IMG/VR virus record: IMGVR_UViG_2778261375_000003
Source: a virus
Lineage: Duplodnaviria > Heunggongvirae > Uroviricota > Caudoviricetes
Strand: one strand, 5' to 3'
DNA length: 64,000 nt
Of the stretch, positions 57,358 through 57,423 are shown one piece after another. Position 1 is the stretch's first letter. Each line of letters starts with the position of its first letter. The notes beneath the pieces were generated by a model. The model was not told the origin of the DNA and searched no databases. It saw only the letters and a list, made by a program, of their open reading frames with translations. Position numbers and translations under genes: made by a program.

Positions 57358-57423
57358 ATTGCTCTAATAATTCCATATTTTTAAAGCGTGATGTACACTC
57401 ATCACGTTTTTTATTAGAGCAAT
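57358..57423. promoter_or_regulatory. inverted pair of C1-type operator-like sites flanking a terminator hairpin
   Basis: ATTGCTCTAATAATTCC (+) and reverse-complement ATTGCTCTAATAAAAAA (-), both 14/17, flank hairpin CGTGATG-TACACTC-ATCACG plus T-run. Confidence 0.5.

Follow-up and report, generated by a model that had tools for sequence, protein, structure and literature searches.

The window (the whole stretch of 64,000 nucleotides that was analysed) is 98.6-98.7% identical over 5 kb to bacteriophage P1 (AF234172, AF234173, NC_005856), and the 511 bp surrounding the palindrome described here are 99.6% identical to both P1 and P7; the same two C1 sites are also present in P7. The palindrome lies at the junction of the genes pmgQ and pmgR (Table 1), and all the genes around it are read from the + strand. 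The upstream unit, pmgL-pmgQ, is annotated in AF234172 with C1-controlled early promoters and with a late promoter, LPpmgL, while pmgR, the first gene of the downstream unit, is essential (PMC9024508). The 81-nt intergenic region packs two operators, a promoter, a candidate terminator and a ribosome-binding site, and it is thus an example of maximal regulatory-signal packing. Related to the general content of the window, gathering-level matches to Rfam correspond to the C4 antisense RNA with its a1/b1 target region (immI region) and to three tRNA genes (22310-22516, 44358-44508 and 46139-46211), all of them expected for P1; at the palindrome itself no family is matched with E-values up to 10.

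Table 1. Features at the pmgQ-pmgR junction, in window coordinates.
Feature	Position	Strand	Basis or remark
pmgQ CDS, last gene of the upstream unit	56655..57356	+	ORF list, P1 record
pmgQ stop codon TAA	57354-57356	+	1 nt ahead of Op86a
C1 operator Op86a (OpmgRa), ATTGCTCTAATAATTCC	57358..57374	+	AF234172 protein_bind, consensus scan
PpmgR, GenBank-predicted sigma-70 promoter	57359..57387	+	AF234172, 'predicted'
Alternative candidate promoter	57371..57399	+	JK004 promoter scan, loop conservation
Hairpin, proposed intrinsic terminator of the pmgL-pmgQ unit	57383..57410	+	Fold, covariation, RNA-seq
Hairpin, 5' arm	57383-57393	+	
Hairpin, loop	57394-57399	+	
Hairpin, 3' arm	57400-57410	+	
T6 tract (U-tract)	57407..57412	+	Sequence reading; invariant in alignment A2
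C1 operator Op86b (OpmgRb), ATTGCTCTAATAAAAAA	57407..57423	-	AF234172 protein_bind, consensus scan
Shine-Dalgarno-like AAGGTG	57428..57433	+	4 nt 5' of the pmgR ATG; sequence reading
pmgR, first gene under the operator pair	57438..57656	+	ORF list, record annotation
pmgS, second gene of the pmgR-pmgS unit, directly after pmgR	57658..58920	+	ORF list, record annotation

The palindrome (57358-57423) reads ATTGCTCTAATAA-TTCCATATTTTT-AAAGCGTGATG-TACACT-CATCACGTTTT-TT-ATTAGAGCAAT. A repeat search found that its outer arms, ATTGCTCTAATAA (57358-57370) and TTATTAGAGCAAT (57411-57423), are 13 nt long, 100% complementary and separated by 40 nt, and that an 11-nt inverted repeat with a 6-nt loop is nested between them. 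The window has four separate locations with a perfect inverted repeat whose arms reach 13 nt or more and whose spacer does not exceed 60 nt (five overlapping matches), whereas dinucleotide shuffles contain a mean of 0.1 per shuffle. Folded as RNA, the whole 66 nt reach -26.4 kcal/mol (z = -9.4 against shuffles). The idea that a palindrome of this kind arose by chance in AT-rich intergenic DNA has the base composition of the region in its favour and nothing else; besides the scarcity of such repeats in shuffled windows, no shuffle reached the fold energy, and the arrangement is conserved exactly in lineages where the proteins are around 70% identical. For these three reasons chance was rejected, and its probability is considered practically negligible.

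The three other perfect inverted repeats of this class are located at 26157-26209, 33002-33030 and 44941-45022. One of them is an AT-rich palindrome (TTTCTATTAT...ATAATAGAAA), another is a hairpin (AAGGTGAAATCG/CGATTTCACCTT) with a four-T run about 5 nt beyond it, and another has arms of 14 nt separated by 56 nt and lies between the two tRNA clusters.

The first-pass annotation of this DNA described operator-like sites in inverted orientation, and both can now be given a name. AF234172 lists OpmgRa and OpmgRb, formerly Op86a and Op86b, each as a 'monovalent C1-controlled operator' controlling pmgR and pmgS. The published C1 consensus is an asymmetric 17-bp sequence, ATTGCTCTAATAAATTT (PMC8546580). 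Op86a and Op86b each match it at 14 out of 17 positions, with positions 1-13 perfect, and they point toward each other at a distance of 49 bp from centre to centre (about 4.7 helical turns). The perfect 13-nt inverted repeat is therefore explained by two consensus cores of an asymmetric operator placed in opposite orientation. The arm motif ATTGCTCTAATAA belongs to a family: with up to two mismatches it has 12 copies in the window against 1.9 expected, a number that none of 100 shuffles reached. Scanning with the consensus (up to four mismatches) gave 11 sites, 10 of which, including Op86a and Op86b, are annotated operators within the stretches of AF234172 that were inspected, and the remaining copies of the arm motif coincide with Op51, Op53, Op68, the bivalent Op72ab, Op82, Op83 and Op88. 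The c1 gene was not found in the 64-kb window by tblastn with the C1 protein, and it lies outside of it. The Cronobacter phage JK004, in which the operators are kept, has a C1 protein of its own, which shares 76% identity with the P1 one. By sequence match and record annotation, the two arms are the C1-repressor operators in front of pmgR, already annotated as such. A full-text literature search found no P1 paper using the term 'Op86'.

A bivalent C1 operator of the Op72ab/Op99ab type was also considered for this locus and discarded, as it needs 17-mers that overlap at an 11-bp offset and the offset is 49 bp here. Elsewhere in the window, the sequence ATTGCTCTAATTATAAC (25669-25685) constitutes a degenerate C1-operator-like site, whose core agrees at 12 out of 13 positions; it is placed 4 nt past the repL stop and before the ORF at 25834.

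Between the operators, AAAGCGTGATG-TACACT-CATCACGTTTT is predicted to form an 11-bp RNA hairpin of -13.4 kcal/mol (z = -6.9; none of 200 shuffles as good), which runs directly into the T6 tract, as the first-pass annotation had already noticed in reporting a stable hairpin with a T-run. This hairpin begins 27 nt after the pmgQ stop and is co-oriented with the upstream + strand genes. It was not listed by the terminator scan of the window, because greedy stem extension through A/T pairs consumes the T-run. When the stem is limited to GCGTGATG/CATCACGT it has 8 bp and -10.5 kcal/mol, followed by the tail TTTTTATT; its G+C content is only moderate, and a crude terminator scan places it about 25th out of 59. 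AF234172 holds no feature for the hairpin, and there are no terminator features in any of the four stretches of the record that were inspected. Taking into account its position together with the covariation and expression data described below, the hairpin most likely ends the upstream pmgL-pmgQ unit as an intrinsic terminator.

A separate observation concerns the other end of the downstream unit, where a hairpin resembling a strong terminator (stem of 11 bp, -17.6 kcal/mol, T7 tail) is located at 58940-58968, just 3' of pmgS, and is likewise without annotation in AF234172. The gene pap has a 10-min value below that of pmgS in the P1vir RNA-seq table.

The proposed terminator and the downstream operator share bases, since the T6 tract, on the - strand, makes up positions 12-17 of Op86b. 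The ATTT of the consensus is replaced by AAAA in Op86b, a departure that would be due to the U-tract doubling as the 3' end of the operator; the invariance of this AAAA is what would be expected if the same nucleotides have to form the base of the stem and the U-tract as well.

Conservation was analysed in 125 loci, obtained by a pattern scan of IMG/VR together with plasmid, genome and metagenome matches; in the pattern-derived loci the conservation of the arms follows from the search itself, which put no constraint on the inner 40 nt. The spacing is 65 nt in nearly all 125 loci and 66 nt in three. JK004 is 71% identical over the region, where the operator cores, the T-run and the spacing are exact and the flanks are scrambled, and three further diverged lineages are also found among the loci (L073/L082/L090, L059, L132). 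The PmgQ, PmgR and PmgS proteins of JK004 and of three lineages from IMG/VR or metagenomes share 68-83% identity with their P1 counterparts. In all four cases the interval from the pmgQ to the pmgR homologue holds identical operator cores, the T-run and a span of 65 nt, in spite of the divergence of the flanks. Searches by tblastn (L073, L090, L059, JK004) placed the module 5' of the pmgR homologue and, where the locus reaches that far, directly after the pmgQ homologue. More distant relatives keeping the locus were not found by tblastn with PmgS: the next matches are Pseudomonas phages with 24% identity, and phage D6 is without pmgS by the same search. A scan of species-representative genomes gave only two matches, both in Escherichia.

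Two types of hairpin are found in these loci: the P1 type, AAA(A/G)CGTGATG-TACACT-CATCACGTTTT, and the JK004 type, (A/G)AA(A/G)CATGGTG-TATCAT-C(A/G)CCATGTTTT. The two types are separated by a pair of compensatory changes, one from G-C to A-U and the other from A-U to G-C, in addition to wobbles. Comparing JK004 with the window, 6 of 22 stem positions differ and the 11 pairs are all kept; in a simulation, the proportion of cases with 11/11 pairs intact was 7.7% for six random transitions and 0.9% when transitions and transversions were mixed 2:1. In an alignment of 20 sequences (A2), pairing is found in 97.3% of the hairpin cells; once the 3' partners are displaced by 1-3 columns, the corresponding figure for the whole structure is 40-57%. 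Both members change in two of the pairs, and six pairs vary only via G.U. The T6 tract (columns 50-55) is invariant in this alignment, including columns 50-53, which are outside the search pattern. An IUPAC pattern excluding P1-type sequences recovered five viral and two metagenome loci, among which a third hairpin type was not found, so the covariation rests on two hairpin types. Rare variants with + strand stem mismatches also exist (phi456/L087, L114, L070, L044, L125). Judging from these alignments, the pairing of the stem appears to have been maintained in evolution, the signal being real but modest (p about 0.01-0.08) and coming from essentially one split, that between the P1 clade and the JK004-like clade.

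The variation of the stem also bears on the level at which the structure would act. A long near-perfect palindrome, with 13-bp outer arms and an 11-bp inner stem, could suggest a cruciform or a single-stranded fold serving replication, recombination or packaging. Nevertheless, the arms are explained by the operator family, of which some ten further copies, not palindromic, are present in the window, and AF234172 annotates no replication or recombination function at the locus. Besides, most of the variation in the stem is of the G.U kind, which pairs only in + strand RNA and becomes a C-A mismatch in the complementary strand, and the JK004 hairpin folds with -13.5 kcal/mol on the + strand but with -5.8 kcal/mol on the - strand. 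Wobbles that are valid on the + strand only speak for a fold of the + strand transcript as RNA instead of a DNA cruciform, which was rejected on the basis of these two strand-specific results; a DNA-level role in general is very improbable.

Expression data for this region are available from P1vir RNA-seq (PMC8201110, Table S1), given per gene as log fold change (LFC) at 10 and 30 min in the wild type and in a dksA mutant. The genes pmgL-pmgQ show 10-min LFC of 5.4-8.0 in the wild type (pmgO-pmgQ are all near 7.0), and from 10 to 30 min they rise by +4.0 to +4.6 in the wild type, +4.6 being the value of pmgQ, and by +4.0 to +5.0 in dksA. By comparison, the 10-min wild-type LFC is 9.0 for pmgR and 10.0 for pmgS, and the rises are +1.8 and +1.7, respectively, in the wild type and +1.5 for both in dksA (PMC8201110). 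The early operons of Op68 and Op88 have 10-min LFC of 8.4-9.8 in the wild type, with rises of +1.9 to +2.6 in the wild type and +1.5 to +2.8 in dksA (PMC8201110). Consequently, the expression kinetics break sharply between pmgQ and pmgR, and the dksA strain has the same pattern. The rise is a measure independent of gene-length normalisation; the values themselves are apparently not length-normalised, as log2 length and the 30-min value correlate with r = 0.76 in 25 genes. After length correction, read density at 10 min is around 12 times higher in pmgR than in pmgQ; at 30 min, pmgS has a lower density than pmgQ, and the signal of pmgR does not fall below the pmgQ one. As P1vir is virulent, the high early expression of pmgR and pmgS agrees with an early promoter released from repression. 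These per-gene values suggest that a new early unit would begin between pmgQ and pmgR and that the upstream late surge would not be propagated into pmgR-pmgS, and mRNA stability could contribute to the kinetic pattern.

A published CRISPRi screen gives information of another kind: roadblocks in pmgO, pmgP, ppp and pmgQ leave plating unreduced though pmgR is essential. Non-polar upstream roadblocks fit an independent pmgR promoter, but this is a weak argument, given that pmgR knockdown itself was scored as non-essential in the screen. In the same data, pmgN (window about 54701-54856) was scored as essential although its deletion is viable, and roadblocks between pmgN and pmgR are harmless; this pmgN result is not explicable by simple polarity.

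The evidence from both halves of the locus can be confronted with a rival account of it, which is a double operator and nothing else. According to this account, the C1 sites repress PpmgR, perhaps cooperatively or by means of a short DNA loop or bend, looping being also the alternative raised in the first-pass annotation, and the hairpin is either incidental or an element of RNA stability or processing, for instance a 3'-end protector of the pmgQ mRNA or, together with the operator arms, a 24-bp target of the RNase III type. The C1 operators are well established, and C1-mediated looping has been described for the Op99 sites. Furthermore, the outer arms would also pair in read-through RNA (hence the -26.4 kcal/mol of the whole 66 nt), and the fixed 65-nt spacing in all lineages could reflect protein-protein geometry. 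However, 49 bp from centre to centre makes a short distance for looping, and AF234172 describes each site as monovalent; immediately after the stem comes the invariant T6 tract, on account of which Op86b has to depart from its consensus; and the difference between pmgQ and pmgR/pmgS in the 10-to-30 min rise argues that the upstream late transcripts stop. The double operator as the whole explanation is thus regarded as unlikely, and it is partly compatible with the terminator explanation, not exclusive of it.

It is quite probable, then, that the 66-bp palindrome is the pmgQ-pmgR junction itself, where a pair of C1 operators flanks both the core elements of PpmgR and the terminator of pmgL-pmgQ. 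The proposal in the first-pass annotation, with the upstream operon ended by the hairpin and initiation of the downstream operon governed by the operators, agrees with the position of the hairpin, the covariation, the break in the RNA-seq values and the non-polarity in the CRISPRi screen. It had further been proposed that termination is coupled to initiation: the juxtaposition of both signals is real, and coupling as such is too strong a claim for this evidence.

The promoter of pmgR can be placed in two ways. PpmgR, as predicted in GenBank, has TTGCTC as -35 (57359-57364, inside Op86a), a 17-nt spacer and TAAAGC as -10 (57382-57387), and its implied start, around 57394, would be in the hairpin loop. 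The layout TTGCTC-N17-TAxxxx is found as well after four more of the + strand operators of the window. By consensus PpmgR is weak: its -10 is without the conserved final T, and the TGAAGC of JK004 loses the key A at position 2. The alternative candidate has TTCCAT (57371-57376), or TCCATA one base further on, as -35, a 17-nt spacer and the hairpin loop itself, TACACT, as -10, so that its implied start (around 57406) would be past the hairpin. The equivalent in JK004, TTTACT-16-TATCAT, passes the threshold of the promoter scan, and T1, A2 and T6 of the loop are invariant across lineages, the other three loop positions varying between lineages in A2. The alternative candidate parallels P2c4/P51a and Pdmt, in which the -35 abuts the 3' edge of the operator and which are listed in AF234172 as promoters without the label 'predicted'. 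A sigma-70 promoter scan of the window gave no site at the locus, both candidates being weak by consensus.

JK004-like lineages also contain a - strand sigma-70-like site inside the cassette, ATGATA-18-TAAAAT (L002 1733-1762, L073 10316-10345). This site would transcribe antisense to pmgQ, and it has no above-threshold equivalent in the window.

If the -10 in the loop were the one in use, Op86a would cover the -35 region and Op86b would cover +1 to +17, an arrangement that would explain two operators at a fixed spacing. This leads to a more ambitious version of the junction, in which a single 66-bp cassette would do four jobs: i) the terminator loop would be the -10 of pmgR (TACACT in P1, TATCAT in JK004-like lineages), ii) the U-tract would be the distal end of Op86b, iii) C1 bound at Op86b would sit on the start site, and iv) the same bound C1 would tighten termination in the lysogen as a roadblock behind the U-tract; the GenBank PpmgR (TTGCTC-17-TAAAGC) would then not be the promoter used. 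This version is offered tentatively and is more doubtful than the junction described above.

Returning to that junction, its operation could be as follows. In the lysogen, C1 on both operators would shut PpmgR, as follows from the record annotation. Transcripts of pmgL-pmgQ would form the hairpin and would mostly stop at the U-tract, and this termination would insulate pmgR-pmgS from the upstream late surge. PpmgR would fire from inside the cassette, and the pmgR transcripts would start either in the loop (GenBank promoter) or just past the hairpin (alternative promoter). Being made without the 5' arm, they would escape termination.

A probably unannotated terminator at this place would insulate an essential head-completion gene, pmgR, from a late-transcribed unit located upstream. 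The junction may be useful for P1 engineering, both for the choice of insertion sites and for the interpretation of polarity in CRISPRi experiments. Beyond P1 biology its significance is small. The 'operator-terminator-operator palindrome' is the known Op86a/b pair; to this, small refinements are added by reading the hairpin as a terminator and by a possible promoter whose -10 is the loop.

Several known systems can be compared with this locus. The closest is the Op86a/Op86b locus of P1 and P7 (AF234172/AF234173/NC_005856 and AF503408), which is the same locus with the same bases: the operator coordinates map 1:1 and there is no difference in the operators, whereas the hairpin and the U-tract are featureless in AF234172. 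Like the Rho-independent terminators of enterobacteria, the hairpin has seven strong pairs with an A-U/G.U extension, a 6-nt loop and an immediate U-tract, and it is placed just past a stop codon. It departs from the canonical ones in its modest G+C content and free energy, in the A-tract before the stem, which pairs with part of the U-tract, and in being embedded in a promoter-operator region.

Among the C1 operators, Op72ab (Obanab, window 43673-43700) and Op99ab (Oc1ab) resemble Op86a/b in having inward-facing inverted 17-bp C1 sites and a C1-controlled promoter. Nevertheless, their sites overlap with an 11-bp offset, while Op86a and Op86b are 49 bp apart, with the hairpin and promoter elements between them, and each one is annotated as monovalent. 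Op51 (22233), Op53 (23904), Op68 (39992) and Op88 (59499) share with Op86a the operator core, the T-rich tract and the TAxxxx hexamer (operator positions 21-30). In these five operators (22233-22262, 23904-23933, 39992-40021, 57358-57387 and 59499-59528) the similarity exceeds the 17-bp consensus, since a T-rich tract at positions 21-25, an A at position 26 and TAxxxx at 25-30 are found at a fixed distance, which suggests a common operator plus promoter cassette of about 30 bp. Op51, Op53, Op68, Op88 and Op86 all head early + strand operons whose expression is high already at 10 min in the P1vir RNA-seq, but a second inverted operator downstream with an intervening hairpin is a property of Op86 only, and not of Op51, Op53, Op68 or Op88.
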